NCBI GenBank assembly: GCA_038883795.1
Contig: JAVZLK010000035.1
Location: 1-16,616, forward strand
DNA: 16,616 nt
Source of the DNA: Candidatus Bathyarchaeia archaeon
GTDB lineage: Archaea > Thermoproteota > Bathyarchaeia > Bathyarchaeales > Bathycorpusculaceae
Direction of reading: 5' to 3'
Part shown: positions 305-16,616 of the stretch, in pieces
Numbering within the stretch: the stretch's first letter is position 1
Layout: each line of letters opens with the position of its first letter
The notes under the pieces: model-generated
Databases searched by the model: none
What the model saw: the letters and a program-made list of their open reading frames with translations, nothing else
Told to the model about the DNA's origin: nothing
Position numbers and translations under genes: made by a program

Positions 305-331
305 TGGTGGGGTAGCTGGGATTTGAACCCA
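305..331 (-). repeat. Distal att site of element A: 27-bp duplicate of the tRNA-Pro 3' end
   Basis: TGGTGGGGTAGCTGGGATTTGAACCCA at 305..331 is identical to 10898..10924 (CCA, acceptor 3' strand, T-arm). The sequences diverge on both sides. Confidence 0.95.
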
Positions 332-343
332 AAATAGCGACGG

Positions 344-368
344 ATGGAGATATCTCCCGCAAAATCCC
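344..368 (+). repeat. Conserved element-end motif, copy 1 (candidate integrase arm or accessory site)
   Basis: ATGGAGATATCTCCCGCAAAATCCC matches the reverse complement of 16218..16241 at 22 of 25 positions. It lies 12 nt inside the att core and is followed by a T-tract. Confidence 0.8.
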
Positions 369-529
369 CTCTTTTTCTATTCACAACATTTTTGAAAGTT
401 TAATTTTTGTTTTTTATTTTATAGCACAAACAGAAACAGAGAATGGAATAACGCATCCCTTAAGATTAAGTTTAGTTTTCTCGAGTTTAGATAATGTTAG
501 TGATCTATGAGTTAGAATGTAATGACTGT

Positions 530-1074
530 TCACGTAGACATATAGATGCCTAACGTTACATTTGCATTTAACTGGACAGCGATAAAATCTGGTAATCGCA
601 CGAAGCTAAAGAATCCTATCCATAACTTTAGAGCTACAACCTGATATGTTTTTACTGTGAGTTATAAGTGTTATAAACAATGTAGCGGTCTTGCCACTAA
701 AAGCCACCATTAGGTACACTCCATCCAATACCTATTGATGCGTTGCCGCCAACATCTAGTGCAATTGTTATTCGTTCATAGCCTTCTACATTGAAGCAAC
801 GCCAAACTGAAGGTACTCCTCCGGGAAGGGCGACGTGAAATCTTTCGCCGTACATATATGTTGTGTGAATTATTTTTACGTTTTTTGTTGAGTTTCCTCT
901 TGTACCGAATGCCGAAACCGCCATAACTGTGTCTGTCATGCTTATTTCTCCATTATCGTCGTAGTCAAGCCATGGATCATTCCTGACAATTTGCTGCATA
1001 GACACCGAAGAGAAAGCCAAAGTTAACAGGATGGAGCTGATCAAAATTGTAACTGCAAGCTGTTTCCTATTCAT
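530..1074 (-). pseudogene. Secreted protein with a single dockerin/EF-hand-like loop, probably disrupted
   Basis: Signal peptide (MNRKQLAVTILISSILLTLAFSS) and loop DPWLDYDDNGEISMTD..AFGT. The ORF stops at TAG 697..699, but plausible coding continues (WQDRYIVYNTYN), then after a frameshift near 660 reads TVKTYQVV...NVTLGIYMST to TGA 530..532. Confidence 0.55.
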
Positions 1075-1152
1075 AAGGCTTTATCACTTTTTCCTTCTAA
1101 TCTATCATTTTCAATCATCTTTAAAAAAGAAAAAGGAAGTGTTGAAAAATGT

Positions 1153-3333
1153 TTAAGGTGAAGATGGAGGCGGCGGCGGTGGTGGCTGCCATGGCGGGCT
1201 TGTTTTTCCGAAGTATTTGCAGACGAAGCCTAGGTCTTTGGCGTCTACTTTGCGGTCGTTGTTGACGTCTGCTCTGAAGCACCATCTTGGGTGCATGTTT
1301 GGGCATGGAGTGGAGCCGAAGGCTTTGCCTACTACACCAATATCTTTGGCATCTACTTTGCCGTCATAGTTGGTGTCGCATGGTAAATAGTGGCATATCG
1401 GCTGTGGCGGCGTAATGTCGTATAATGCGTGGGGGACATAATACCATTTCCATAGGTTGTAGGCGTATATTCCGCGAAATACCGGATTATAATACCAATC
1501 TACTACCCAGTCTCGTTCCCAATGACGTCTCAGCGGTTGGCTTATTGGCACGCTTGGACAATCCTCGACAGCAAGCAACTGAATATTAAGGTATATTAGG
1601 GCCCTCTCCAATCCATCTTTTACTTTAACACCTTTCTCTATAAGTTCATCCATTGTTGGGTTACAATATCCCTGATAAGCAGCCATCCCCATTTTACTAT
1701 GATAGAAATTGCTAGCAAAGTCGTGTGGATCTGCATAGCAAAATGTATATCCGAAAATAAAGAGCGGAGCCCATTTATTTTTTATCGCCCTGAAATATTC
1801 TGGAATAGGTAAGGCTACAATATTAACATGGAACTTTGGATTAAGCGCTTCAATGTTTTCTTTAATGATCTCTGCAGCTATTCTTCTCGGCTCATTTCCC
1901 GTATTATACAGTATTGTTATTGTGAAGCCTGTCCGCCACACGCTTGCCGCTTGAAATTCCTCTATAGCCTTTGTTAGGTTGTAGGTGTAGCCTTGCACTG
2001 GAGCGTAGTAAGGCAAGCATGGGACGATAGCTGTTGGAGGTGCTATAGCCTCACCTGCATAGGCTTGCTGTAGAAATCTTTGATAGTCGAATGCGTAGGC
2101 AAAGCCTTTCCTAATATGCGAGTAGTTAAAGAAGTCTCTTGGAATACCATCCTCGCTCCACCATCCTGGAGGATATATTATACCATAAGGGGTTTCTGGA
2201 TTAACATCAAAAACATAAAATATGGCTTCCACGGCAAGTTCAGGCAGTGGATACATAAATCTCACTCCTGGTTTCTGATAAAATTCAGTTGCGCTAATAC
2301 CTGGTATATCGATTGATCCGTTAAGGAACCCTTGAATAATTTCTTCCTTTGTCAAGCCCCATTTTACAGTGAAGGATGTAACCCAACCAGCCGGTTTGGT
2401 GCCAAAACATGCAGGGAAGTCCGCTGGCCATCCTCTCCAGTAATCATAGTTTATAACAACCCTCCAGTATCTCTCCGGTTCGGATATCGTATCTAACATG
2501 AATGGCCCTGTCCCACACATAACTGGGTATGGTTCGTCTAGAGGAGATGTTGGCAAGTGATGGTAATTTATCCAATCAGTATAGTCGCCCCATTCGCCAC
2601 CCCATTCCTTCCGGTTAAGCCATCCGATCACGTATTCGTTTATCCAAGCTTTGCTCAATATGCTTGAGTATGGCTGGCATAAAATCTGTAGGAATGGCGG
2701 ATATATTGCTGGGAAAACAAAGTTGAACCAGACATGAGTAGCATTTGACTCAACAGCGTGATCTATGGCCTTTCCAACGTTAATAATGCCCTCAGGTGTG
2801 CTGAGGTTAAATTGTGGACCATATTTTATGAGGTCTTCAGCTCCGGAAGCGTTTAGGAGAGGGGTGTAAATAGTCCACGCTAGCCCTTCATCGTAAACCA
2901 TGACACGCTCAAAAGTGTACTCAACATCCTCAGGTTTAAGCGGATAGTAATGCAATTCAATGTCACGGAAGTACACTCCAGTCCTTATTTCAAAGATGTA
3001 CCTATAGAACCACGGCAACCCTTCAGGACTAACGCTTCCTGTAATGTTCTCAACAACCCATTTTGTCGCAAGCTGAGGCATAATATGATCGGATGTAACC
3101 CTTTCGCCGTCATAGAACAACAAAGTCTCATAGATATTAAAAATTAGCTCAGCACTTGCATCATCAAAACACCGCGCTGGATCAACCGTTTCAGGCCCAT
3201 CAATGGTTCCCTTAATGAGATGGTAGACCTCATTAATTGGAGGAAATGCATACGCCGGAATAATGCTAAAAACGTTTAGGCTTACTGTTATGACAGTTAT
3301 CCAAAAAATACCCACCAACAATTTTCTCCTCAT
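1153..3333 (-). CDS. ABC transporter substrate-binding protein (family 5, DppA/OppA-like) with C-terminal dockerin-like domain and poly-Pro tail, 726 aa
   Basis: Motifs GPETVDPA, NIYETLL, PQLATKW, PEDVEYTFER, GTGPF, IRKGFAYAFD and YADPHDF. Duplicated D-x-N-x-D-x-KVDAKD loops at the C-terminus. The ATG at 3333 follows GGGAGGAG and starts a signal peptide, so it is preferred over 3546. Confidence 0.92.
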   Translation of the reverse strand: MRRKLLVGIFWITVITVSLNVFSIIPAYAFPPINEVYHLIKGTIDGPETVDPARCFDDASAELIFNIYETLLFYDGERVTSDHIMPQLATKWVVENITGSVSPEGLPWFYRYIFEIRTGVYFRDIELHYYPLKPEDVEYTFERVMVYDEGLAWTIYTPLLNASGAEDLIKYGPQFNLSTPEGIINVGKAIDHAVESNATHVWFNFVFPAIYPPFLQILCQPYSSILSKAWINEYVIGWLNRKEWGGEWGDYTDWINYHHLPTSPLDEPYPVMCGTGPFMLDTISEPERYWRVVINYDYWRGWPADFPACFGTKPAGWVTSFTVKWGLTKEEIIQGFLNGSIDIPGISATEFYQKPGVRFMYPLPELAVEAIFYVFDVNPETPYGIIYPPGWWSEDGIPRDFFNYSHIRKGFAYAFDYQRFLQQAYAGEAIAPPTAIVPCLPYYAPVQGYTYNLTKAIEEFQAASVWRTGFTITILYNTGNEPRRIAAEIIKENIEALNPKFHVNIVALPIPEYFRAIKNKWAPLFIFGYTFCYADPHDFASNFYHSKMGMAAYQGYCNPTMDELIEKGVKVKDGLERALIYLNIQLLAVEDCPSVPISQPLRRHWERDWVVDWYYNPVFRGIYAYNLWKWYYVPHALYDITPPQPICHYLPCDTNYDGKVDAKDIGVVGKAFGSTPCPNMHPRWCFRADVNNDRKVDAKDLGFVCKYFGKTSPPWQPPPPPPPSSP

Positions 3334-3778
3334 TTCTCCTCCCAATAATAATGAGAACTTAAAAGAGAATATAAATTTTTCATGAAAATTTTCGTGTAAA
3401 AGGAAGGCGAGAATAGTTACCTTTAAGTTGCCAACTAGAAGAGGGGAGGGCTGAAGTTTAAGCCTTATCTTAAGGGTTTTCATGATCTTCAGTACGGAAA
3501 ATTTAGCAACAATTGAAAGTGGTGTTTGACTGCCCCCAGTTATCATCGTGGAAATGAAAATAGCTGAATCAAAAATATTAAAGAATGGCTTAAAAACGGC
3601 AAATATAAGCGAAAGACCACCACTTCAATTTTCATGAAGCTTTAGCACTCGAGCCGATTATTTCAAACATAATTTGCATGTGGTTTATAGTGAAATATCT
3701 TGGCGATTATCGTGGAAAAACCCTCATCCACGTTTTGGCTCAATTATAGTAAAACAGGTAAGTTGAAGTTATATGTAG

Positions 3779-4006
3779 TTATATTGAGTAAAATGATAAA
3801 ATTCTGCGCCTTATTCTTCTACGATTAAGCCTGTAACTCGCAAATATTTTGGAAGGCTGACTATCTGGGATTCTTAAATGTCCTGAAGGCAGCTTTATAC
3901 ACGCTATTAAGCCCTTCTTAATCCACCTGTATATGGTTTGGTCTGTCACGCCCAGCATATGCGCAACTTGCCTAACCTTATAGTAGGAAGGGTAACGTCT
4001 ATCCAT
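3779..4006 (-). CDS. Excisionase-like (MerR/HTH_17-type) helix-turn-helix protein
   Basis: YKVRQVAHMLGVTDQTIYRWIKKGLIACIKLPSGHLRIP is the typical Xis-like HTH-plus-wing pattern. Confidence 0.85.
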   Translation of the reverse strand: MDRRYPSYYKVRQVAHMLGVTDQTIYRWIKKGLIACIKLPSGHLRIPDSQPSKIFASYRLNRRRIRRRILSFYSI

Positions 4007-4142
4007 TCGATCTTCTAGGTAATATGGGTTTAACCTTCATTTAAGCTTTAAACGCATCTAAAACGCCTTTAAGCTTCAAATTTAAGCCTTTTCCGCGCGA
4101 AGCTTATATTTTCATGCTTCTTTAACGTTAAATTGGATAAAT

Positions 4143-4415
4143 ATGCCCTCTAGGAGGATACATGAGCATTTGGATATGCTGCTTTTCGGCAAACGTTACA
4201 GTTGGCTCCATAGGTGGATGGATGAGCCATGGAGAAGCCGAGGCAAAAAACATAGGCAATTGCGCCATGATCCGCAAAAAACACCAATGCAAGCCTTTGT
4301 CCTCTCTAGTGGAGACTGGAAAGCCTACATATCAGCATTATGCCACATCATGTTAGATAAACTTTCAATAAATCCTGCTGCTGTCGAATTGTTGTACTTC
4401 ATAATAAAGCATTAA
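4143..4415 (+). CDS. Small His/Asp-rich hypothetical protein, probably metal-binding
   Basis: 90 aa with HEH, HRWMD, HRQLRHD and HIMLD motifs. Divergent from the HTH gene, with an AT-rich promoter-like region upstream. Confidence 0.7.
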   Translation: MPSRRIHEHLDMLLFGKRYSWLHRWMDEPWRSRGKKHRQLRHDPQKTPMQAFVLSSGDWKAYISALCHIMLDKLSINPAAVELLYFIIKH

Positions 4416-4535
4416 AAACCTTGATCCCTTATGCCATTAGAATAATTAGAATACATTCACGAAGCTCTTCAAAAGCGGAGGTAGGATATAAGGCTGAGGT
4501 TCCTGAAGCGTTACATTTTACCATAAAATTTTTAA

Positions 4536-4610
4536 CCCCAAACCCAAACCCAACCCCGCTCGTTCTCTTTTTCTTTCTCCCCGCTCGCACGCTCGCTCGC
4601 AAGCTCGCCA
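4536..4610 (-). repeat. G-quadruplex-forming tract plus clustered GCTCG repeats
   Basis: The minus strand of 4536..4557 reads GGGGTTGGGTTTGGGTTTGGGG. On the plus strand GCTCG occurs at 4558, 4583, 4591, 4595 and 4603, and CCCCGCTCG occurs at 4554 and 4579. Confidence 0.8.
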
Positions 4611-4613
4611 CAG

Positions 4614-4745
4614 TCACAAGCAAACAAACCTAAGCTTCCATTCAGGCTTTTCGTTTCTCAGGTATTTGGCTAAAAGATAGGCTTCCTCGTTAATGAGGGT
4701 TTCAACTGTTTGGCTTTTCCCATGCTTAATTCTTGGAATATTAAT
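4614..4745 (-). pseudogene. cas1: Probable C-terminal remnant of a solo Cas1/casposase-like endonuclease
   Basis: INIPRIKHGKSQTVETLINEEAYLLAKYLRNEKPEWKLR resembles, from memory, the C-terminal helix of solo Cas1 proteins in Bathyarchaeia/Nitrososphaeria. The upstream part of the ORF overlaps the next gene and looks non-coding. Not verified by search. Confidence 0.6.
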
Positions 4746-4849
4746 GCATATCCACATACCATAACGTTTAATTTTTTGCTGCAACTTATAAAGAATTTTC
4801 GTAAAAAATAAATCTGGAAACCATGGATTAAATCGTGAGGAGAAGGGAA

Positions 4850-6484
4850 ATGAAAGAAATGGCTTATGGAATAATGCTAACAGTATTGTTGCTCGTTGCT
4901 TTCGTATTTCCGATGAATCCAGCATATGCGTCTACTCAAGTAACTTCCTTTAACCCAGCTCTATACAATATTCAGAATATCTCGAGAACTTGGATTGTTA
5001 ACACACCGAATTATAAAGAGGCTATTATAAATATTATTACAACTGAACAGACTTTTGAATTTCATTTTAACATAACTATCATTGAAGATGACTTTGAAAC
5101 AATTTTTAACGTGTCAACGTCATTACCGGATATTGGTCCTGTCTACTTTATTTCAAGATTTCCAGATACTTTGGGAGGTGCACCTTACACTGGTAGGTGT
5201 ACGACTGTTGAAGCGTTTCGGTTGGACATCCCCTCATGGCTTGTCCCAATACTCGAAAGCATTTTAGCAGCTTTAACTTGTGCGTTATTAGTTGCAATAA
5301 TAATTGTAATTGTGGACATGATTCTAGAAATTTTATGTAGTGAAGGTTTAGTTTCAGGTCCACTATGGGACTTTATTGGAAGATTTGGCACAGTTTTACT
5401 TTCTATTCCATGGATTTTCTTGACAGTTTTTCAAGAAAAAAATCCAGATGGTTCGGTGACGTTGTACTTTCCTTACATGTATACGGAAGGAAGCAATTTT
5501 GATTATGCTATTGATTTACTATTTAATTATAACGAATATGCTATTGCAAGCAACATGAGTTGGTGGAGAATTGTGAAACATGTATATCGAGTATTTTGGC
5601 TTGAGTTCATTTGGTTTTCAGCTGAATGGTATGGATTTGTTTACCCTCCTGAAGAGTGGTGTAAACCAACTCCGCCAATTATAATACTTCCACAACCATG
5701 GATTTATAAACCAATGCCATTATTTGTTTATGGTCCGCAACCGCCATTTGTGGGAGACGCTGTAACATTCATTTCAGCGAGCTATTCACCAAATGGAACT
5801 ATAACATACGTGCATTGGTCTTTTGGAGATGGTTATGACGCTGAGGGATTCAATGTTACTCATGTATATGGAAAACCTGGAAAATATGTTGTTACAATGG
5901 ACGTAATTGATAATTGGAATTCAATAGCCACAATTTCATATGTTATAGATGTTCTGTTACCAGCAACAGTTGACATAGAACCTGCATGCCTTATTTTAAA
6001 AACTGGAGGTAACTGGACCGCTGCCTATATCGAGCTTCCAGAAGGCTATAATGTAAGTGATATTAACGTAAACTCGATAATGCTGAACGGCACAGAACCG
6101 GTGGTCCCTACAGCTCCCACCTTATTGGGAGACCATGACCGCGACGGCTTTCCAGACTTGATGGTTTTATTTAATAGAACAGCCGCTGTACAGCTCATAA
6201 TTTCACAGGGCATTATGGTTGGAAATGTGGCAATAACTATAACAGGTCAGCTTGCTGATGGTGCGGGGTTTATGGGAAGCGGCGTTATAAGTGTTAGGAT
6301 GCCAGGAGACCTAAACATGGACGGCATGGTAGACATGAAAGACATTTCCTTAGCAGCCAGAGCTTTCGGTTCATACCCCGGCCATCCAAGATGGAACTAT
6401 GTGGCTGACGAAAACGAAGACGGCATAATAGATATGCGAGATATAGCCTTAACATGCAGAAACTTCGGAAAAACCTACACATGA
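4850..6484 (+). CDS. Secreted or membrane protein with PKD domain and C-terminal dockerin-like domain
   Basis: Signal peptide ending AYA; internal hydrophobic helices; PKD motif VGDAVTF...WSFGDG...VTHVYGKPGKYVVT; dockerin-like GDLNMDGMVDMKDI...ADENEDGIIDMRDI. The ATG at 4850 follows GAGGAGAAGGG; GTG 4835 is an alternative start. Confidence 0.9.
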   Translation: MKEMAYGIMLTVLLLVAFVFPMNPAYASTQVTSFNPALYNIQNISRTWIVNTPNYKEAIINIITTEQTFEFHFNITIIEDDFETIFNVSTSLPDIGPVYFISRFPDTLGGAPYTGRCTTVEAFRLDIPSWLVPILESILAALTCALLVAIIIVIVDMILEILCSEGLVSGPLWDFIGRFGTVLLSIPWIFLTVFQEKNPDGSVTLYFPYMYTEGSNFDYAIDLLFNYNEYAIASNMSWWRIVKHVYRVFWLEFIWFSAEWYGFVYPPEEWCKPTPPIIILPQPWIYKPMPLFVYGPQPPFVGDAVTFISASYSPNGTITYVHWSFGDGYDAEGFNVTHVYGKPGKYVVTMDVIDNWNSIATISYVIDVLLPATVDIEPACLILKTGGNWTAAYIELPEGYNVSDINVNSIMLNGTEPVVPTAPTLLGDHDRDGFPDLMVLFNRTAAVQLIISQGIMVGNVAITITGQLADGAGFMGSGVISVRMPGDLNMDGMVDMKDISLAARAFGSYPGHPRWNYVADENEDGIIDMRDIALTCRNFGKTYT

Positions 6485-6798
6485 AATACTTTTCCAACAC
6501 CCATCTTTTTCTAAAAGCCAGAACGTCAAGAAATGGGCCTTAAACTTAGACCCCTTTTTTATTGTGTATGGTGCAAAATACTTTACCTCTTCTTCTTTAA
6601 TTCTGACAATAATAATTTACTTTATTGCTTCAGGATTTTCGCTTGAAAAAAGGTAAAACTAAATGGTTATCGAAGGAAGAGGCTGATGAATTCAGGAACT
6701 GCGCCAAGAGCAAGCAATTGAGGTAGGCTTAGTATATAACACCTCGCCCGAAAAATTTAAGGTTCATTAAATATATTATCTTTGGTTTGGTTTATGGG

Positions 6799-7677
6799 CT
6801 AATTGTCCGGAACCGGACAGCCAAACACCTTAATAATTAGAGGTCGAATTTCACTTTCTGTTAAGGAATCAACATGTTGTGCTAAAAGTTCAGGTTTAAA
6901 GCCTTTAAAGTTGCTCCATAGGTCATCGACATCTGGTAGGTCTGGAATTTTTAGACCGTTTCTTTCAATTATTTTCATTGAACGTTTGATTATCTCGCAA
7001 ATTTCTTCGAGAAACTTTGGCTTTTCTTTTAACATTAAAATACTAGAAAACAGAATGCTCGATCTTTTCAAGTATGCCTTCATAATGTCAATTGAAGGTG
7101 TACTTAAAAGGTAGTCGATAAGTCTTTGCTTCTCATTCTCATTTAAAATGTTATATAATTCAGCGGGGGAATTTTTAGGCAGCACCACAACACATTTACT
7201 TGGTCTACCACCCCTATCAAGAATTAATCCCGTGAATTTTTTTGGTCTGCCTATCTTTTTTGGTATAAAAACTGGTTTGCCAGAAACATATCCGCGCTTC
7301 AAGCCAAATTCCTTATCATCAAAAAGTTGGATATTAACATTTTCGTAGAAAGATTTCAGAGAAGAATACTCATGTTTAAAAATTCTTATAACTTTATGGA
7401 GTTTAACGCCTGAGGCTTCCGCTATCTCGCTATATGCCCCTCCCCTGCCCAAAAATGCTTCTAAAATCTCGCTAGCAATTAAAACCTTTACTTCATCAGG
7501 CAATTCAAACCGAGCAAACCCTTCTAAATTCTTATTTTCAATTTTTCGATTCAATTCATCGGTTAAAAGCAAAATACAGTTTAAGAATCCAGCAAATATC
7601 CTGGAAGGTAGGTTTTCCACGTTTTTTAAAGATTCGCTGCCTCTAAAGTTCAAAGTTTTACCCTCTCTAACCATCAT
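6799..7677 (-). CDS. Hypothetical protein, possible HTH regulator; true start probably downstream (e.g. TTG 7503)
   Basis: Long open frame with HTH-like YSEIAEASGVKLHKVIRIF. The maximal start leaves no room for divergent promoters. Confidence 0.6.
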   Translation of the reverse strand: MMVREGKTLNFRGSESLKNVENLPSRIFAGFLNCILLLTDELNRKIENKNLEGFARFELPDEVKVLIASEILEAFLGRGGAYSEIAEASGVKLHKVIRIFKHEYSSLKSFYENVNIQLFDDKEFGLKRGYVSGKPVFIPKKIGRPKKFTGLILDRGGRPSKCVVVLPKNSPAELYNILNENEKQRLIDYLLSTPSIDIMKAYLKRSSILFSSILMLKEKPKFLEEICEIIKRSMKIIERNGLKIPDLPDVDDLWSNFKGFKPELLAQHVDSLTESEIRPLIIKVFGCPVPDN

Positions 7678-7689
7678 TAGGTGGCACCT

Positions 7690-7872
7690 ATGGAGGTTAA
7701 AAATTTGACGCCTGTAAAAGTGACTAGGGTCACATCAAATGATCGTTGGCCTTTGATATACATTCCAAAAGAGGCTGTTCAGGAGCTGGGGCTTAAAAAG
7801 GGTCAGCGTGTTCTAATGCTTGTTGACCATTCAATCGGAGCTCTAATCATAAAACCTGTTTTCAAGGAGTGA
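7690..7872 (+). CDS. AbrB/MazE/SpoVT-family DNA-binding protein
   Basis: PLIYIPKEAVQELGLKKGQRV swapped-hairpin signature. AGGTG precedes the ATG at 7690. Confidence 0.85.
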   Translation: MEVKNLTPVKVTRVTSNDRWPLIYIPKEAVQELGLKKGQRVLMLVDHSIGALIIKPVFKE

Positions 7873-7879
7873 ACATTAC

Positions 7880-8560: not shown

Positions 8561-8831
8561 AGAGAAATTACCATTAACTGATGAAGACTTCTTCGGGCTG
8601 GTTGATGTTTTGCTTAAGCGTCCGCCAATACAAAGCCAAAGCATGCCAAACATCAAAATCCTCATCGTGGACCACAATGGACAAGAGTATAGAATAGGCG
8701 TGATAGGCAAAGAAGCCTTTGAATCAGTTAAAAAGCATGGCTACAAGGACAGCGACGGCAAAATACACCTTCAAATTCCCAAGACATGCCTGAGGGAGCA
8801 AGGATGCGGATGGATAAACACTCCGTATTAG
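8553..8831 (+). CDS. Hypothetical protein (element A backbone)
   Basis: GGAGGTGA at 8537..8544 precedes the ATG at 8553, which overlaps the previous stop codon region. Confidence 0.75.
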   Translation: MGEEKLPLTDEDFFGLVDVLLKRPPIQSQSMPNIKILIVDHNGQEYRIGVIGKEAFESVKKHGYKDSDGKIHLQIPKTCLREQGCGWINTPY

Positions 8832-8843
8832 AGGTGCGGTTGA

Positions 8844-9182
8844 GTGGCAGGCAAAGCCCCAGTCTACCTACAACTTGCAAATCTTGAATCATTCATTGAG
8901 GAGCTTAAGCACAGAAGCCTGTCTGAAGCTAGGCTATCGGAATGGATCCAGCGCCGTGACATGTTTGAACGGCGAAAGTTTAGAGTTACAGCCTTAGACC
9001 CATATTATGGTCTAATACTACGCTACGAAAGCGTATATTATCAGGGCTTAGCTGTTGACGGCGAAACTGCAGAGCTTAAAAAATCTAGGGAAGAAGCCAA
9101 AAAGCGCATTACTGAAAGGCTTGAGGCTGAGGGAATACGCCTATTTGAAGGCGAATACCACGCTGGAAAGGCTGAATGGTAA
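8844..9182 (+). CDS. Hypothetical protein (element A backbone)
   Basis: GAGGTG RBS before a GTG start; operon spacing; 112 aa, charged and soluble. Confidence 0.75.
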   Translation: MAGKAPVYLQLANLESFIEELKHRSLSEARLSEWIQRRDMFERRKFRVTALDPYYGLILRYESVYYQGLAVDGETAELKKSREEAKKRITERLEAEGIRLFEGEYHAGKAEW

Positions 9183-9304
9183 AACAAGCAGCCTAGACCC
9201 GTCAATGCTGAAATTTTCATTGTCTACGGGTTGCATTTGGCATCTTTGGGTTGCCATTACAATGGGACTGTCGCTCAATCCTCGCTGATTCGGGGCTGCC
9301 ATGA

Positions 9305-9703
9305 GTGAGAAGCTTTAAAGCCTTAAAAGAGCCTAATTTCTCAAACTGCGACGTTTTCAGGCTTCTCTTTAGAAACCATAAGACCATTCACGCTTCAAGG
9401 CTCCTTTTCGGTTGGATGCTGAATAATGGCGGTTACGCAACACCATCCCAGCTAAGCCAATTCGCATGGAAACTACAAAAAGGTAAGGTTGAGGAAGGCT
9501 ACAATTATCGGCGTTCAAGCCTTTACAGAACAGTTTTGAGGCGCCTCTTGGATTTCGGCTTCATAAACCAACAGCAGATCTACGACAAGGAAACTGGCAA
9601 AATTGTCCAAGCCTACGTTCTAATAAAGCAGTCCATACCAAAACGCGCTCCCCTTGGCGGAGCCAGCTTCTGGAAGCTGGCATGGCACATATGCAAAGCG
9701 TAG
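9305..9703 (+). CDS. Putative winged-helix DNA-binding protein, possibly shortened by a premature TAG
   Basis: TPSQLSQFA...RSSLYRTVLRRLLDFGFI followed by a beta-wing. The frame continues NEQLEKAKG to TAA 9731..9733, just before the integrase ATG. Confidence 0.65.
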   Translation: MRSFKALKEPNFSNCDVFRLLFRNHKTIHASRLLFGWMLNNGGYATPSQLSQFAWKLQKGKVEEGYNYRRSSLYRTVLRRLLDFGFINQQQIYDKETGKIVQAYVLIKQSIPKRAPLGGASFWKLAWHICKA

Positions 9704-9740
9704 AATGAACAACTCGAAAAGGCGAAAGGCTAAGGCGAAC

Positions 9741-10867
9741 ATGACAACGCCAATCCATTGTCCACAGTGCGGTTCAACGCTTTTTTGGAAGGATGGAATG
9801 CGTTATCTATTCGATGGCTCAGCTGTTCAGCGTTATGTTTGCAGAAATTGTGGACACCGCTTCTCTGAGCCGAGCAATAAAATTGAAAAGCAAAACCGCA
9901 AGCCCATACTTTTGGAGAGGGCTCCCTTGACCCTTAAAGCCCAAACAGAAAAGCGGGCTGCGGGAGCCACAGAAAAGCCAAGCATTGCGGAGCTTCAGGG
10001 AAAAATCGTTGAGTTTCTATGGTGGATGAAGAAGCAAGGATATAAAGAGACAACGATAGCTGGTAAGGAAAAAGGCTTCAGAGGCTTGTTAGGCTTGGAG
10101 CCAACCTTTTAGATCCTGAAAGCGTAAAAGAAACAATAGCGAGGCAAAACTGGTGCGATTCAGGAAAGGAAACAACGGCATACGCTTATGACCTCTTTGC
10201 AAAATACGCTGGGATTAAATGGGAGAGACCAACCTACAAGCCTCCGAGAAAGCTTCCATTCATACCACATGAAAGGGAGATTGACGACCTAATAGCTGGC
10301 TGTAATAATAAACATGTGGCAGCGTTCCTTCAAATTGCAAAGGAAACTGGAGCAAGGGCTGGAGAAATCTTCGATCTAAAATGGACGGACATAGACTTTG
10401 AAAGGAAAACGTTGTCGATAACCCCTGAGAAGGGAAGCGATCCTAGAATCTTGAGGATTTCAGACAAGCTAATAGCCATGCTTCAAAACATGCCAAAAAA
10501 GAGTGAAAGGGTATTCAGCAATTACAAAAGCTTAAAAACCTTAAGCTTAGCCTTCCAGCGCTATCGCAAAAGAATAGCCTTCAGGCTTGGAAATCCGAGA
10601 CTTCTAAGGATAAGCTTCCACACGCTTCGCCATTGGAAAGCCACAATGGAGTATCATAGAACAAAAGACATACTTCACGTAATGCAGATGCTCGGACAAG
10701 AAACATCAAAAACACGCTGATATATACCCAGCTTGTCAAATTTGAAGGTGAAGACGAGTACATTTGCAGGGCGGCTAAAACAGTTGAACAAGCTTAGCCC
10801 TAATCGAGGCTGGATTTGAATACGTCTGCGACATTGACGGAATCAAGCTGTTTAGAAAACGAAGTAG
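9741..10867 (+). pseudogene. int: Tyrosine integrase with N-terminal Zn ribbon (IntA), four apparent 1-nt deletions
   Basis: CPQCGS...CRNCG, then KLPFIP, ETGAR, PEKGS, FHTLRHWKAT, IYTQL and GFEYV...KLFRKR, collinear with IntB. Frame breaks near 10068, 10698, 10794 and 10862. Confidence 0.9.
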
Positions 10868-10897
10868 CTTACACCTGCTGGGGTTTTATCCAAAGGA

Positions 10898-10976
10898 TGG
10901 TGGGGTAGCTGGGATTTGAACCCAGGATCGCCAGCGCCCCAGGCTGGTATCCTAGACCAAGCTAGACGACTACCCC
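10898..10976 (-). tRNA. tRNA-Pro, anticodon GGG, intron-less, CCA encoded
   Basis: GGGGTAG-TC-GTC TAGCTTGGTCTAG GAT-A-CCAGC CTGGGGC GCTGG-CGATC-CTGGG TTCAAAT CCCAG-CTACCCC-A-CCA folds as a full cloverleaf. Confidence 0.97.
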
Positions 10977-10998
10977 ATTTTCGTGGACGGGTACCCTG

Positions 10999-12228
10999 CT
11001 ATTTTCGTTTTCTAAAAAGTTTGATGTTGTTTATTTCTGTTACGTACTCAAAGCCTGCCTCTATAAGTTGGGTTGCTTCTTCTATGGTTTTTGCTGCTTT
11101 GCAGATGTATTCGTCTGTTTTGAAATTGACTAGTTGGGTGTATTTTAGGGTGTTTTCGATTCTTTTGTGGCCTAGGCATTGCATTACGTGTAGGATGTCT
11201 TTTGTTTTGGCGTATTCCATGGTGGCTTTCCAATGTCTTAAAGTGTGGAAATGTATTTGCAGTAGTCTCGGGTTTCCTAGTTTGTAGGCTATTCTTTTGC
11301 GTTGGGTTGTGAATGTTTTTCTTAGATAGAAGGTGTTTTTGTATGTGAAAACTTTGAGGTCTTTCTTTGGTAGGTTGTTAAGCATGCTTGCAAGTTTTCC
11401 CGATATTTTGAATATTCTTGGGTTGCTTCCTTTTTCTGGCGTTATTCTAATAGTGTTTGTTGCAAAGTCTATGTCTGTCCATTTTAGGTTAAAGGCTTCT
11501 CCGCATCTGGCGCCTGTTTCTTTCAGGAGTTGTAGGAATGTTGCTATTTGGTGGCTGCAGCCTGCTATTAGCTGGTCTATTTCTTCCTCTGTTGGTATGA
11601 AGGGCAGTTTTTGGGGAACTTTGTATTTTGGCATTGTTAGGTTTATTCCATATGTTAGCTTTAGGAAGAGTTTGTAGGCTTTGAAGGCTTGATTTTTTCT
11701 GGCTGGGCTCCATTTTTCTTGTTTGGCTATTATTTCTTTGACATTTTCGGGGTCGGATAGGTTGGCGCCACGTTTATGCAAAGTTTCTAGAATGTAGGTG
11801 TAGCCGGCTACTGTTGCTTCTGAATAGGCTTCTTTTTTGAGTTTCCACATGAATTCTATGACTTTTCCTTTAACGTCGGCGGCTGTATGCTCTGTGGCCC
11901 CCGCAGCCCATTTTTCGCTTTCTTTTGTGGCTGCGGCCAAATTTTTCGCCCCCAAAGGCTGGGAGGCGCATATTTGGCGGTGATAGGCTATGGCTTCCAT
12001 GCTTTTTAAAATCTGCGTATGAATTTTCTGAACTTGTTTAGAGCCCTTTGAGGTGTTGAGGCTGGCTGGCTTTTGTCTGTTGGGTTCTGAAAAGCGGTAG
12101 CCACAGTTCCTACAAATATAACGTTGTACTTGGCCTGTCGCAGTGTAGCGGATTCCATCCTTCCAAAGTTTTTGGGAGCCGCATTCTGGACAGGCCAGTG
12201 GCTTGTTTTTGGCTTGCCGTGAAGCCAA
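10999..12228 (-). CDS. int: Tyrosine recombinase/integrase with N-terminal Zn ribbon (IntB), 409 aa
   Basis: Complete catalytic set: R (TGAR), K (PEKG), HxxR (HTLR), H (LGH), Y (KYTQ). N-terminal CPEC...CRNC. TTG start with upstream GAGGGT. Confidence 0.95.
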   Translation of the reverse strand: MASRQAKNKPLACPECGSQKLWKDGIRYTATGQVQRYICRNCGYRFSEPNRQKPASLNTSKGSKQVQKIHTQILKSMEAIAYHRQICASQPLGAKNLAAATKESEKWAAGATEHTAADVKGKVIEFMWKLKKEAYSEATVAGYTYILETLHKRGANLSDPENVKEIIAKQEKWSPARKNQAFKAYKLFLKLTYGINLTMPKYKVPQKLPFIPTEEEIDQLIAGCSHQIATFLQLLKETGARCGEAFNLKWTDIDFATNTIRITPEKGSNPRIFKISGKLASMLNNLPKKDLKVFTYKNTFYLRKTFTTQRKRIAYKLGNPRLLQIHFHTLRHWKATMEYAKTKDILHVMQCLGHKRIENTLKYTQLVNFKTDEYICKAAKTIEEATQLIEAGFEYVTEINNIKLFRKRK

Positions 12229-12236
12229 TAGCGGGC

Positions 12237-12473
12237 CTACCCTCTAGGTTTTTGGTGCTGTTGCCAGTCGCCTAGCACGCCTTTTTGCACTGCGGCCATA
12301 AGTTGGTCTGCTTTTACGTAGATGGCTTTCCAGTGGTAGGCGTCGCAGTCCATCATGAAGGCTATTAGCACATAGCCTATGACTTCGTATTGTCTGTTTG
12401 CCCATTCAAAGTCGTCTATGTGCAATCCGCCTACAATGAGAATGTCAATTTTAGGCTTGTCATCAACTGTCAA
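12237..12473 (-). CDS. Hypothetical protein upstream of IntB
   Basis: 78 aa; GAGGGGG before a TTG start; the stop lies 8 nt before the IntB start. Confidence 0.6.
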   Translation of the reverse strand: MTVDDKPKIDILIVGGLHIDDFEWANRQYEVIGYVLIAFMMDCDAYHWKAIYVKADQLMAAVQKGVLGDWQQHQKPRG

Positions 12474-12756
12474 AATTGATAGCCCCCTCTAGATTTTTCG
12501 CCTGGAAAATAGACACTGCCAGAAAACCATTTTCGCCTCCCCCTCTAGTCTTTCGGGGCGATGTCATGGTTGTGGCTGTTTCGGCTTAACAAATACACTA
12601 CCCCTTCTCTAGTTTTGGCTGAAAGCGGAAAGGCTGTGCATTCTGGTTTTTCGGGTCTGTTACTTCCATTTTTGAAAAGGAGAGTGAAAGAGAGAAAGAG
12701 AAGAAGAGAAAATGCATAGGCATAAGCACACACGCACACATACACACGTTAGAAAG

Positions 12757-13158
12757 CTATTGCTGGTTATCCTCGGAGCTCGGCAGCGTCTCAAGGAGTT
12801 CCTGGTAAAGTTTTAGGGCTTTCTCTCTAACAGCCGGGTCTTTAATGTTATCTATGCGCTTGAGCAACGGTATAACAGACCTTTCTTTTTCCTCTTGGGC
12901 TATTATATGTTTCATGGCTGACCGCTGCTTTTCTGTGAGGTGATAACGCGCATAGGCATCAGCCTTAATAATACCTGCGAGTGTTAACTCCTTTACCATT
13001 TCGCTGGTGGTTTTGAACTTTAACCCAAACACTGTCAGCATATACGCTTGAATCTGTGTTATTGAAACGCCATGCGGCTCATTCAAATTAATGAAGGTTA
13101 AAAGCTCCATCATACGACTATGCCGCTGAGTGGCACCGTCAGGAACGTCTGCACTCAA
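12757..13158 (-). CDS. Winged-helix DNA-binding protein
   Basis: ELLTFI...GVSITQIQ...TTSEMVKELTLAGIIK...RYHLT wHTH pattern; GGAGGT RBS. Confidence 0.78.
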   Translation of the reverse strand: MSADVPDGATQRHSRMMELLTFINLNEPHGVSITQIQAYMLTVFGLKFKTTSEMVKELTLAGIIKADAYARYHLTEKQRSAMKHIIAQEEKERSVIPLLKRIDNIKDPAVREKALKLYQELLETLPSSEDNQQ

Positions 13159-13187
13159 CGCGCTTACCTCCTATAAATGCTTCAGTT

Positions 13188-13388
13188 TCAACCTTGACCT
13201 TGACTATCAATACCCAGAGAAGGCTTAAACCCTAAACGTTCAAGCTCTCGGCGGACAGCTTCCCGGATAAACTCTGTTTTGGTTCTATGCCAAACCCGAC
13301 CAACAGCCGCCTCCAAAGCGTCGTCCAAACTCTTTGGAACAGCAACATTCCAAAACCGCACACCCCGACCGCTTTGTTCCTCACCCAA
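13188..13388 (-). CDS. Ribbon-helix-helix (CopG/Arc-like) regulator
   Basis: WNVAVPKSLDDALEAAV...TKTEFIREAVRRELERL. GGAGGTG lies 6 nt before TTG 13388; the longer N-terminus in the ORF track is just translated repeat DNA. Confidence 0.85.
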   Translation of the reverse strand: MGEEQSGRGVRFWNVAVPKSLDDALEAAVGRVWHRTKTEFIREAVRRELERLGFKPSLGIDSQGQG

Positions 13389-13448
13389 CACCAACACCTC
13401 CACGCCAGCGCTTAAACAAACAACAGAAAACACAAAACAAAAACCAAA

Positions 13449-13508
13449 TTGGACCATACATTGGCCTACACAAGGCACAACAAAATGGCCAAAACAGTGG
13501 CCCACAAC
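13449..13508. promoter_or_regulatory. Five degenerate 12-bp tandem repeats (operator or iteron array)
   Basis: TTGGACCATACA / TTGGCCTACACA / AGGCACAACAAA / ATGGCCAAAACA / GTGGCCCACAAC, located between the divergent RHH and methyltransferase genes. Confidence 0.6.
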
Positions 13509-13582
13509 ACAAAAAATGAGCATATAACATGCAAAAGCAACACTTAATTAGCAATTCTTATAATAGGACACTGGAGAAAGTG

Positions 13583-14467
13583 ATGGAAGCAGTCCAGAAC
13601 AAGAGAAAAATTATTAACAAACTTAACGAGTTAAGCGGCAGAGAATGGATTAAATTCACCAAAACATGGTTTATCCATCGCCCAGCCCCTAGAGAAAACG
13701 CCAAACTTTTACACCCAGCAGCTTTCCCTGAATCACTTGCAAAGGAGTTTATCGAATTTTTCACAAAAAGAGGACAGCTAGTTCTAGACCCCTTCCTGGG
13801 TACAGGTAGCACACTAATTGCTTGCATTGAAAGCGAAAGATCCGGTATAGGTGTGGAAGTTGTAAAAAAATGGGCTGATATTGCTGAAATGAGAGTAAAA
13901 AATCTATTAAGCCAAAGAAAAGGCTCAGAATATTTGCTAAATTCAATGGGATTAACCCCCGAAAAACTGCTAATAAAGGTTATCCACGGAGACTCTAGAA
14001 GATTATGTGAGATATGGAAAGAAAACAATTTTCCACCAGTAGACTACTGCATTACAAGTCCGCCCTACTGGAATCAGCTCAAAAGAGATTATCTCAGGCA
14101 AAAGGAGAGAAAGGAAAAAGGTTTCGAAACAAAATACAGCGAAGACCCCAACGACATAGGCAACATCGATGATTATAATGAATTCCTGAAGGCGCTGAAG
14201 CAAATATTTAATGAAGTTTATAAGATAACCAAAAACGGCGGCTATTTAACAGTCATAACAAATAACGTATTCTACAATGAAAGATTATACCCCTTAGCCT
14301 TTGATACTCTAAAAATTTTAAGCGAAGAACCCTATGCATGGGTTCCAAAAGACGAGAAAATTTGGCTGCAAGACGACAAACCTCTACTTCCCTTAGGTAT
14401 ATACAACGTATGGATAGGAAATAGAGCACATCAATATTGTCTAATTTTCAGAAAAGAAAAGGGATGA
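13583..14467 (+). CDS. Amino-DNA methyltransferase, probably N4-cytosine
   Basis: HPAAFP, then SAM-binding VLDPFLGTGST, then catalytic ITSPPYW. The ATG at 13583 follows GGAG; 13529 is an alternative start. Confidence 0.92.
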   Translation: MEAVQNKRKIINKLNELSGREWIKFTKTWFIHRPAPRENAKLLHPAAFPESLAKEFIEFFTKRGQLVLDPFLGTGSTLIACIESERSGIGVEVVKKWADIAEMRVKNLLSQRKGSEYLLNSMGLTPEKLLIKVIHGDSRRLCEIWKENNFPPVDYCITSPPYWNQLKRDYLRQKERKEKGFETKYSEDPNDIGNIDDYNEFLKALKQIFNEVYKITKNGGYLTVITNNVFYNERLYPLAFDTLKILSEEPYAWVPKDEKIWLQDDKPLLPLGIYNVWIGNRAHQYCLIFRKEKG

Positions 14468-14470
14468 AAC

Positions 14471-15619
14471 TTGGGGGTCCAATACACTCTAACTGGTGAA
14501 GAGCTGGTAAGTGCTCTTTCGCATGATGAAATGGCATTTGAAGTTGCTCGCACAATCAGAGATTTGGTTTTAAAAGGTATAGACCCTTGGAAAACATTAT
14601 ATAAACCAACAATAGTCATTACATCATCCTCAGAATGGCCAGAGCCAGATTTTGTATTTGATGACAGAAAAGGAATAACTTACAGCTTTGAATTTAAGCC
14701 TCCTGAACAAGTCAGGCGAGAATACCTACTAGGAATAGGACAAGCCGTAGCTTATCTGACACATTTCTCTCATTCAACCATAATTCTTCCCAAAACGGCT
14801 GAAAATTTCAACATAGCTGATTATATCAGTAGCATTGTACGTAGCCTACCGCTAAAAATAGGCGTAATAGCCTATGAACCTACCGACATCAAACAATTAG
14901 AAGTTCTCGTTCCATATCCCCCTCAACCCGTAGGCCCCCTAGAAAGAAAGGCGGCCATAGGAAAAGTTTTCTGGGCATTCTGGATGGATGAATCAATACA
15001 CGAATTTTACCTCATGCTAAAACGCTCATATGAGCTAAGAAACGAGCCAGGAGATATAAAAGAAAAAGTGTTCAAAGATATCTTTGCTTTAATGCAGCAA
15101 GGACAGACATATGCGAATGATGGTACTCCTAGAAGGTTGGGAGGCCGCTTAAAGTTTTCCTCATGGTTTCTAAATTACCGCTTACCCTTCCTTCACTGCG
15201 GATTATGGAGCCTAGACGGAAAACCAACCTTAACCGGAACAAGAATCCTCTCCATCGGAGACACATACGGATGGGACTCAGAAGAATTCAGAAACGCCCT
15301 AGCAAAAGCATACCTAACCAACGGAAAACACTTACTCCTACTAAAATACATATGGGACATCCAAATAAGCATGATAAACAACAACATCAAACACCAAACC
15401 CAAAACGAATACCTAAACAAAATGGCAGACGAACTCATGAAAAGAGGATTCGGAAGAGCCCACAGAGGCGTAAGAAGAAACCTCCAAGCCATGATATCAC
15501 TATGGGGAGGCGGATTCAAAATCCTAAAAACCAGAAAAAACAGTTACTACTTCAGAGGCTTTGGCCTAGTCCCAGACTGGGGCAAAATAACCACAATCCT
15601 CCAAACACAATACTGGTAA
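14471..15619 (+). CDS. Putative restriction endonuclease, PD-(D/E)xK fold
   Basis: PEPD-x13-EFK followed by GIGQAVAY (QxxxY helix). Starts 3 nt after the methyltransferase stop. Confidence 0.75.
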   Translation: MGVQYTLTGEELVSALSHDEMAFEVARTIRDLVLKGIDPWKTLYKPTIVITSSSEWPEPDFVFDDRKGITYSFEFKPPEQVRREYLLGIGQAVAYLTHFSHSTIILPKTAENFNIADYISSIVRSLPLKIGVIAYEPTDIKQLEVLVPYPPQPVGPLERKAAIGKVFWAFWMDESIHEFYLMLKRSYELRNEPGDIKEKVFKDIFALMQQGQTYANDGTPRRLGGRLKFSSWFLNYRLPFLHCGLWSLDGKPTLTGTRILSIGDTYGWDSEEFRNALAKAYLTNGKHLLLLKYIWDIQISMINNNIKHQTQNEYLNKMADELMKRGFGRAHRGVRRNLQAMISLWGGGFKILKTRKNSYYFRGFGLVPDWGKITTILQTQYW

Positions 15620-15678
15620 AAAGAAAAGGGGAATAATCGCACTTTCAAATCTTTATTAGGCTTTAAGAATACATCTTG

Positions 15679-15867
15679 TCATTCTTTATAGATGTAAACT
15701 AACAACCATCCGAACTGCAAAAGAACACCTATTGCAACAAGACCCCACCCTGCGTTTACCATACCGTTGTTGCCTAGTAAACTGCCAAAGAAAAGCAAAA
15801 CGAATCCAAGCGCTAAACAGATCGCTGGCGGGCTTCTAGCAATAACGTCCACCAACACGTCGAGCAT
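15679..15867 (-). CDS. Small two-helix membrane protein
   Basis: 62 aa with two hydrophobic segments; GGAGGG RBS before the ATG. Confidence 0.7.
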   Translation of the reverse strand: MLDVLVDVIARSPPAICLALGFVLLFFGSLLGNNGMVNAGWGLVAIGVLLQFGWLLVYIYKE

Positions 15868-16217
15868 TACACTACCCTCCTAGGGTAACGAGTACCCGCA
15901 TTGATTGGGACGGAAAAAGCTTAAATTTAAATGCCTCTTTATCTAACAAGCGCTGACTCGCAGATGACGATGAGATTGGTTGGCCCAACCAATCGAGTAT
16001 TCTCATTTTACCCCGAGTTTTCCGAGACGATAATACACAAACTTATTAGATTTTTCAACAAGAATTATTAAAAAAGAAGATAAATCAGAGCATACGTATG
16101 TTGTTTCTCATAACTGAACATTATAGAAGAAGGCTAAATTGCGCTTTTTATGCACAAAAGGCTCTTAAAAGGCCGATTTTATAAAAAATCAAATAAAAAA
16201 GATAGAATAAAAAAAAT

Positions 16218-16241
16218 GGGATTTGCGGGGGATTTCTCCAT
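16218..16241 (-). repeat. Conserved element-end motif, copy 2
   Basis: The minus strand reads ATGGAGAAATCCCCCGCAAATCCC followed by a T-tract, 8 nt inside the att core. Inverted relative to 344..368. Confidence 0.8.
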
Positions 16242-16249
16242 TTCAGTTT

Positions 16250-16274
16250 TAGACCAAGCTAGACGACTACCCCA
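16250..16274 (-). repeat. Distal att site of element B: 25-bp duplicate of the tRNA-Pro 5' end
   Basis: TAGACCAAGCTAGACGACTACCCCA is identical to 10953..10977 (position -1 through the D-loop). Confidence 0.95.
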
Positions 16275-16616
16275 ATATTACAGACCAGCGCCCTCATACT
16301 TATTTTCTTTTTCTAAGCCAAGATTTTGGGGTTATGGTTGTGCTGTTATGCTTTTACAAAACACTAGCCATCTTAGTTTTTCGGAGCGACTTGAAGCATC
16401 TTCGTGTTGCGGGTTTTAACGTTGACATTCGTCCTGCCAGCACATAGTCAAATTTAGGCCGCTGTGGCATTTAAATTGAGTACCCTCTCTAGGTTTGTCT
16501 CATTATGTGGCCAGAAAATATGCTTTTGGCTTCTGTGGAAAATGGGCTTTCAAGGGCTTTATTTTCCCTACCCCCTCCTCTCTATGTTTAGTTGAAAAAG
16601 CAACAACTTCAAAACC

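Follow-up and report, generated by a model that had tools for sequence, protein, structure and literature searches.

How can a single tRNA gene carry an integrated element at each of its two ends, and what decides which end an element takes? The question is raised by a 16,616-bp stretch of DNA (the window), which is the entire contig C35 of a metagenome-assembled genome (MAG), G000, of a hot-spring archaeon of the Bathyarchaeia; the MAG counts 81 contigs and 2.18 Mb, at 87% completeness and 3.4% contamination. The only tRNA gene of the contig, a tRNA-Pro(GGG), lies between two convergent integrase genes, each belonging to an element of its own. We have good confidence in an account in which two separate site-specific integrations fill both ends of this gene, with the end set by the lineage of the integrase, and the double occupancy is itself likely to be real.

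The tRNA-Pro(GGG) gene and its two integrases

The tRNA-Pro(GGG) gene (10898-10976, minus strand) is 79 nt long with an encoded CCA, and it is intact by ARAGORN and by its Rfam tRNA score of 58.2 bits, as an initial annotation made from the letters alone had proposed. The same annotation had noticed that both ends of the gene recur at a distance, and both repeats proved exact. The 3' terminal 27 bp (10898-10924; tRNA positions 53-79) are repeated on the minus strand at 305-331, and the 5' terminal 25 bp (10953-10977; positions 1-24 and one upstream base) at 16250-16274, also on the minus strand. Each pattern has two matches in the window at up to three mismatches, a second match being found in 0 of 200 dinucleotide shuffles (0 expected). 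The copies within the tRNA gene are the near attachment (att) sites, and the displaced copies the far att sites, of a left, 3'-side element of 10.6 kb (332-10897) and a right, 5'-side element of 5.3 kb (10978-16249), both of which show the hallmark of tRNA-integrated elements, a direct repeat of part of the tRNA at the far end and an integrase beside the intact gene. As the repeat pairs cover separate parts of the tRNA (positions 53-79 and 0-24), the geometry lets either element leave without touching the other. As a side observation, ACCAGCGCCC is found in both flanks (282-291 and 16284-16293) and a 9-nt part of it in the anticodon arm (10931-10939), which may be chance or a trace of older, longer att fragments; fragments of 36-45 bp are held by relatives. 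The window gene is intronless, whereas the tRNA-Pro(GGG) genes beside 5'-type integrases in loci L062 (11258-11358) and L135 (909-1008) have an intron of 21-22 nt at position 42.

That two Zn-ribbon integrases converge on the tRNA held true, and they are a homologous pair, with 59-60% amino acid identity in the largest left piece and inverted repeats (I1-I3 and I6) linking the two genes; that the left one is a pseudogene had been missed. The right integrase (10999-12228, minus strand) is an intact gene of 409 aa whose stop lies 22 nt from the tRNA 5' end. It matches Pfam Phage_integrase (PF00589) at 74.3 bits against a cutoff of 27.1 (E 1.4e-20) and has at its N-terminus a CPxC...CxxC Zn ribbon that scores 29 bits against the IS1/IS1595 Zn domain; core-binding and catalytic domains of Xer-like type follow, and ~45 aa ending in FRKRK extend the C-terminus. 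R241, R331, H332, H354 and Y363 are invariant in nine family members. Its nearest solved relatives are archaeal XerA proteins (PDB 5hxy at 1.3e-17), and with the NCBIfam XerA model (NF040815) it scores 103.7 bits, under the equivalog cutoff of 220. The gene is not of the suicidal SSV/pTN3 type, in which the attachment site of the element (attP) lies within the open reading frame (ORF) and integration splits the gene: here the 409-aa ORF is whole and the repeat lies outside it.

The left integrase (about 9690-10867, plus strand) survives as four reading-frame pieces, its ancestral stop ~30 nt from the tRNA 3' end. Compared with an intact orthologue in the relative G011 (L049), which likewise adjoins tRNA-Pro(GGG) and shares 71% nucleotide identity, it shows 1-nt deletions near 10068, 10698 and 10861 and a net change of -1 at 10790-10796; one frameshift separates the LGH motif from the catalytic Tyr. 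Systematic sequencing error is unlikely, because the other long ORFs of the contig, unlike this one, are intact and because an independent contig agrees: among the read-level data, which are Logan contigs of four runs (X1-X4) and not raw reads, a contig of run X1 is identical to the window throughout 9944-10909 (0 differences). As its integrase has at least four deletions that break the frame, one of them closely preceding the catalytic Tyr, the left element is unable to excise unaided, and the earlier proposal that each element can excise independently is not supported as worded; mobility would require an integrase provided in trans. The right element, its integrase and repeats being intact, is probably still mobile, and it alone seems self-mobile.

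The double-flanked layout is unusual but built from known parts, and it is not a one-off. On contig C63 of the same MAG (359-6920; L002 and L006) a second tRNA-Pro(GGG) gene (5893-5971), differing from that of C35 at 2 of 79 bases, has on one side a 5'-type integrase (4635-5864), whose 22-bp 5' repeat stands at 357-378, and on the other a 3'-type integrase (6006-6899) cut off by the contig end. Convergent integrase pairs also occur in 3 of the 80 loci surveyed below, at tRNA-Pro (L116), tRNA-Phe (L120) and tRNA-Leu(TAA) (L136), the 5'-side copy being truncated, frameshifted or interrupted by stops in all three, and remnants of both integrase ends surround tRNA-Pro(GGG) in G008 and G029. A 26-bp tRNA-Pro 3' fragment followed by an integrase-end remnant (C12:564-589) is the sign of a 3'-side tandem array. 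tRNA-Pro(GGG) is a hot spot from both ends. A further candidate for a doubly flanked tRNA, in L100 (10001/11279), was dropped, as it consists of two 3'-type ends around a tRNA-Asn 3' fragment: at L100:11150-11320 two family integrases converge on a 91-nt gap holding this fragment only, flanked on both sides by inverted spacer copies, which looks like a rearranged pair of 3'-type elements and not like a doubly occupied tRNA.

Choice of tRNA end across the integrase family

The family is abundant. A scan of one genome per species returned 538 or more relatives, of which the best 80 lie almost all in Bathyarchaeia MAGs; seven further members sit in IMG/VR viral contigs, and about a dozen copies in the MAG studied here. 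The survey of 5' versus 3' use that the initial annotation had called for was carried out on these best 80 loci, 16 regions of relatives and all 81 contigs of the MAG, giving 113 groups of high-scoring segment pairs, and a side was assigned wherever a tRNA (ARAGORN, introns allowed) lay within 150 nt of the C-terminal end of the integrase. Fifty-nine copies adjoin the 3' end of a tRNA and 17 the 5' end, while the rest have no tRNA called (20), no room on the contig (10) or no C-terminus (7). The 5'-type targets are tRNA-Pro(GGG) in eight cases, Ser(GCT) in three, Arg(GCG) in two, and Gly(GCC), Trp, Phe and Leu(TAA) in one each, and two IMG/VR contigs hold extra 5'-type copies at tRNA-Ser(GCT). 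Repeats of the 5' fragment accompany 6 of the 17 copies, all covering tRNA positions of about 0-24 (C35, 25 bp; C63, 22 bp; L062, 21 bp; L064, 20 bp; C4 and C19, 14 bp each), and the four longest flank separate elements of 5-8 kb at tRNA-Pro(GGG). At the far end of two 5'-type tRNA-Ser(GCT) elements of 15-18 kb in the MAG, beside the 14-bp repeat, we also observed a stand-alone frame of 51 aa that matches the Zn ribbon of the integrase only, at ~60% identity (C4:25149-25385 and C19:29601-29836), perhaps a remnant, perhaps a small gene in its own right.

On a quick IQ-TREE phylogeny (LG+G4) of the 96 copies of at least 250 aa, 17 shorter groups being excluded, the side used changes just twice among 15 5'-type and 54 3'-type rows, against a mean of 13.7 when sides are shuffled, and none of 500 shuffles is as low. 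Constraining all 5' rows together raised the likelihood by 45.5 over the free search (p-AU 0.83), so a single origin is not rejected and one or two switches are implied. The right integrase falls among 5'-type copies at tRNA-Pro, Gly, Arg and Trp, and the left one clusters with 3'-type copies whose targets are Pro(GGG) and Gly(GCC) (99% support). Pro(GGG) is likewise the target of another 3'-type clade, a distant one, and Pro(GGG) and Gly(GCC) are each targeted from both ends within the family. Survey and tree together uphold the central suggestion of the initial annotation, that one integrase family has members using either end of a tRNA, including both ends of the same tRNA-Pro(GGG) gene. 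Judged by sequence comparison, the end used is a property of lineage within one Zn-ribbon, Xer-like and apparently non-suicidal family.

A common arrangement of the attachment region accompanies both types. In the spacer past the stop of the right integrase, 21 nt upstream of tRNA position 1, the initial 12 nt of the tRNA recur as a degenerate copy (10986-10997, minus strand; 9 of 12 matching), a candidate integrase-binding site. In general terms this copy reproduces the opening 12 nt of the target when approached from the integrase, namely the word of the acceptor stem and then the start of the D arm in the 5' type or of the T arm in the 3' type. In 13 of 17 5' loci and 24 of 57 3' loci the best 12-nt copy precedes the start of the acceptor by 20-21 nt, where 1000 shuffles of the spacers give means of 0.67 (maximum 5) and 2.26 (maximum 8), respectively; a further mode is seen at 31-32 nt. 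At least 9 of the 12 bases match in 9/17 and 12/57 loci (14/3,400 and 103/11,400 in shuffles). Past the acceptor word, the copy resembles its own side: positions 8-12 agree with the side used at 3.38 of 5 bases, versus 1.38 with the other side, in eight 5'-type loci, and at 2.26 versus 0.93 in 27 3'-type loci. Seen from the integrase gene, the two ends of the tRNA present one and the same 7-nt acceptor word. A related observation comes from the same-genus relative G001, where an 11.9-kb element (L149, G001:C4:24000-43999, about 7470-19400) sits at a non-tRNA site between 22-bp direct repeats; its integrase, an intact family member different from that of the left element, is followed past the stop by the word CCCTTTAC repeated 21 nt apart, and this two-turn spacing at a non-tRNA site implies that the attP plan is not limited to tRNA targets.

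From these features a sequence of events can be proposed. The left element would have entered at the tRNA 3' end by the classical route, through an attP carrying tRNA positions 53-79 and with a crossover probably in the T arm, displacing the old 3' end to 305-331; its integrase would later have decayed, so that the element is now a relic, stranded if no related integrase helps it in trans. The right element would have entered at the tRNA 5' end through an attP carrying positions of about 0-24, displacing the old 5' end to 16250-16274. The attP plan common to both types would run from the integrase stop through the degenerate 12-nt copy and ~8-9 nt to the acceptor-stem strand and the adjoining hairpin. 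Because the acceptor stem is an inverted repeat, an integrase meets the same 7-nt word at either end of the gene, followed by the T arm or the D arm, and a lineage could flip ends by re-specifying just the next few bases, yielding the mirror-image layout.

Integration of the 5' type would rebuild the tRNA without its native upstream DNA, so that transcription would start from DNA of the element, the promoter probably residing in the A-rich stop-codon region of the integrase gene. On the right side, the 35 nt upstream of the tRNA hold only the spacer and the A-rich last integrase codons (~23-42 nt upstream), and unoccupied tRNA-Pro genes of relatives show TTTAAT/TTTATT-like boxes at similar distances. 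In two relatives, short LFRKRK-stop or RKRK-stop stretches were seen 45-65 nt upstream of an otherwise unoccupied tRNA-Pro(GGG) (L046, in G001:C2; L048, in G016:C15); they equal the family C-terminus, with no further similarity to the integrase, and may be vestiges of old 5'-side elements that now stand at the expected position of the tRNA promoter. A broader mirror rule for this abundant family is conceivable, which we advance tentatively and think somewhat more apt to fail than to hold as a whole: in attP the acceptor word would always be preceded, at two helical turns, by a degenerate target copy, lineages would flip ends, each tRNA gene would offer two independent docking sites from both of which arrays grow, and the integrase stop-codon region would serve as promoter of the rebuilt tRNA, its vestiges now being the resident tRNA-Pro promoter in some relatives.

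Flanks, assembly and alternative explanations

The left flank past the displaced 3' fragment (1-304) contains the beginning of a gene on the minus strand (about 69 to 1), and the right flank (16275-16616) measures 342 bp. Bases 1-139 match G001:C23 at 83% identity, a match that does not lie beside the tRNA-Pro gene of G001, and bases 301-331 are identical (100%) to the tRNA 3' end and the four downstream bases of G012; the left flank gave no further synteny. The flanks (304 and 342 bp) have no other match in the MAG, and an exact scan of metagenome contigs with 24-nt flank words gave 0 stretches for each. The start of the right flank (16275-16301) bears a weak likeness to an integrase end and spacer, namely an LRKRK-stop on the minus strand followed by a copy of GAGGGCGCTGGTC, and repeat D2 extends there to 52 nt at 75% identity; the segment may be a vestige of an older 5'-side element. 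Both interiors were sought as core DNA in 40 relatives; ordinary core sequence in related genomes, with no empty site, is what the initial annotation had named as speaking against integration. Neither was found as such: the left interior gave only partial matches of at most 750 nt, in six of the relatives, and the right one partial matches in three. In G001:C2 and G012:C1, tRNA-Pro(GGG) stands free of family integrases and of additional tRNA fragments for 10 kb to each side, but its flanks are not syntenic with those of the window.

Several observations weigh against our account of two integrations with a lineage-fixed end. The short flanks lack synteny with the corresponding loci of relatives: no flank of C35, C63 or C12 recurs around tRNA-Pro in G001, G012 or G016. 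Neither an empty site with these flanks nor a circle nor a read spanning a junction was found in the Logan contigs, the flank scans or the relatives; the excision joints 331/10925 and 10977/16275, which the initial annotation had proposed to look for, are both absent among the 15 of 44 Logan joints listed. Runs X2-X4 give depth over much of the right element (X4 in a few bins only) and almost none over 555-8310, absent cover being no evidence here. Within the survey, no repeat of at least 13 bp was found within the available flanks of up to 10 kb for 48 of the 59 3'-type and 9 of the 17 5'-type copies; 3'-type repeats were found in five copies and six had no room, two 5'-type copies had no upstream DNA for the search, and most 3'-type elements are probably longer than the 10-kb flanks. 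The free topology of the quick LG+G4 tree scored below the constrained one, and the degenerate copy is weak in the clade of the left element itself (5/12, at 22 nt). The role of that copy as integrase-binding site, the place of crossover and the position of the promoter are, moreover, inferred.

The alternative that deserves most attention is an assembly chimera, in which two strains with one element each at this tRNA were joined through the common 79 nt of the gene. The MAG does hold two versions of the locus, C35 and C63, along with many duplicate tRNAs, which counts against us; the Logan contigs break at the tRNA, those of run X1 stopping inside it, and none of the listed pieces bridges it; and depth at the tRNA and its flanks exceeds that of the element interiors more than tenfold, which means that several genomes of the sample share these parts. 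Such a joining would nevertheless have to recur, as the same convergent layout was assembled independently in C63 and, from other studies, in L116, L120 and L136; remnants of both integrase ends flank tRNA-Pro in G008 and G029; and the 25-bp repeat includes a tRNA position at which C35 and C63 differ. We regard a chimera as improbable for this contig, and the recurrence elsewhere speaks against it as an account of the layout in general. Less probable again is that the side is not fixed by lineage, one integrase reading only the acceptor-stem word and the elements landing on different ends by chance. The 7-nt word is indeed the same at both ends, and both Pro(GGG) and Gly(GCC) are targeted from either one, but so few changes of side on the tree are far from what shuffling yields, the degenerate copy follows the side of its own element past the acceptor word, and the repeats derived from attP carry side-specific D-arm or T-arm sequence.

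Least of all do we favor a rearrangement, by which two elements in tandem at the 3' end were later separated when inversion or recombination moved one of them across the tRNA. Elements in tandem are indeed present (C12:564-589), L100 has a peculiar inverted pair with a tRNA-Asn fragment in its middle, and for Thermococcales the portion of PMC5495485 available to us describes inversions between tRNA genes that are driven by integrases. An inversion, however, would not make a direct repeat of the tRNA 5' end, and repeats of this kind, of 20-25 bp, flank four separate 5'-side elements at Pro(GGG); the 5'-type integrases, besides, form a lineage or lineages of their own. Two separate integrations, one at each end of the gene, remain the reading that we prefer.

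Element contents, known systems and significance

In the left element, the cargo consists of a family-5 solute-binding protein (1153-3546, minus strand) and a PKD protein (4835-6484, plus strand), both ending in a dockerin by Pfam; these are surface proteins borne on an archaeal mobile element. The backbone includes, again by Pfam, an HTH_17/MerR-like protein of 75 aa (3779-4006, minus strand), a MazE/AbrB-like protein of 63 aa (7681-7872, plus strand) and an HTH_23 protein of 226 aa (7880-8560, plus strand), followed in the ORF list by small ORFs (8523-9703). Four backbone genes (o90, HTH75, o112 and o132) recur at 67-79% amino acid identity in the 11.9-kb element of G001 (contig C4), and homologues of o102 lie directly upstream of integrases in L136, L097 and C19. 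Among small ORFs generally, not those of the left element alone, searches of Pfam, NCBIfam, PHROGs and PDB gave no match for the 292-aa and 133-aa proteins or for o78, o102, o112 and o132.

The right element carries, beyond its integrase, small ORFs at 12237-12473, 12545-12745 and 12757-13158 (all minus strand), an RHH/CopG-like ORF (13188-13523, minus strand; Pfam), an N6/N4 DNA methylase (13529-14467, plus strand; Pfam N6_N4_Mtase, 1.7e-27), an adjoining gene for a 382-aa protein (14471-15619, plus strand) and a 62-aa ORF (15679-15867, minus strand). The 382-aa protein, which has no match in Pfam, NCBIfam, PHROGs or PDB, is by its position a possible restriction partner of the methylase. The whole element is collinear with the 5'-side element on C63, at 78% nucleotide identity and 65-91% between proteins, and partly collinear with that of L062, from a Bathyarchaeota MAG. 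Between C63 and the right element the cargo is 88-91% identical and the integrase 65%, a difference that suggests module exchange. At 0.41, GC content is the same in both elements as in the genome, so that composition is uninformative on origin. Elsewhere in the MAG, several tRNAs exist in three to four near-identical copies on small contigs (Ser(GCT) and Glu(TTC) four times each; Cys, Ile(GAT) and Arg(TCG) three times each), many of them adjoining family integrases; the bin probably mixes strains, and element-rich contigs probably inflate it.

An element described by Zhao and Williams in 2002 reportedly recombines with the 5'-distal part of its tRNA. The left element of the window behaves as do classical tyrosine integrases of the 3' end and T loop, with an integrase beside the rebuilt tRNA and a 3' fragment at the far end. 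By contrast, 5'-distal recombination is called "considerably less frequent" than 3' use in the accessible part of PMC6563490, which names a handful of cases, among them the 5'-distal integration of CalSub-E1 at a tRNA-Ser of Ca. Caldiarchaeum subterraneum; this source and the part of PMC8371274 at hand support the statement of the initial annotation that 5'-side integration is the rarer kind. CalSub-E1 and the element of Zhao and Williams are single cases, whereas a family-wide split of sides and occupancy of both ends are known here and do not figure in the account of PMC6563490, as far as its available portion goes. That account also gives tandem re-use of one att site as known; in the window, unlike in classical arrays, a second array grows from the other end of the tRNA.

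The closest precedent for the right element is offered by the pTN3-like integrases of Thermococcales and Methanococcales (pTN3, TKV4), called "unique in archaea" for their use of tRNA 5' halves in the excerpt of PMC8371274 available. As far as the available parts of PMC8371274 and PMC5495485 describe it, their attB is a tRNA gene's 5' half, and the full tRNA is rebuilt and cut from its own promoter; the latter source further presents them as SSV-related suicidal integrases whose gene is split on integration. The use of 5' halves and the severing of the tRNA from its promoter are thus likewise found there, yet their attP lies inside the integrase ORF, whereas the right integrase here is whole with its attP 22 nt past the stop, and the present family is Xer-like, bears a Zn ribbon and holds both 5'- and 3'-side lineages. 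In structure and sequence alike, the core-binding and catalytic domains come closest to archaeal XerA (PDB 5hxy, 4a8e); compared with it, the family adds the N-terminal Zn ribbon and the C-terminal extension of ~45 aa, is borne on mobile elements and reaches about a dozen copies per genome. By title and the start of the abstract, we found no publication on one tRNA gene occupied at both ends or on this Bathyarchaeia integrase family, though supplements of the papers cited here may list pertinent att sites; a work on Bathyarchaeia viruses (PMC10848311) mentions integrases in passing only, in the part available.

The use of tRNA 5' halves is therefore already known in archaea, from pTN3-like integrases and a few others, and what is new here is its occurrence in an Xer-like, non-suicidal family. 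If our account is true, this would be a second archaeal integrase family that acts on tRNA 5' halves, unrelated to the other and, unlike it, non-suicidal, and the first seen here with sister lineages on opposite ends of the same gene. Frequent breaks of Bathyarchaeia assemblies at tRNA-Pro(GGG) would thereby be explained. If specificity is as modular as it looks, such integrases could provide orthogonal pairs of landing sites on one small conserved gene. Close relatives that take opposite sides by a shared, simple attP plan would make testable the long-standing question of what sets the part of a tRNA gene that tyrosine integrases use.

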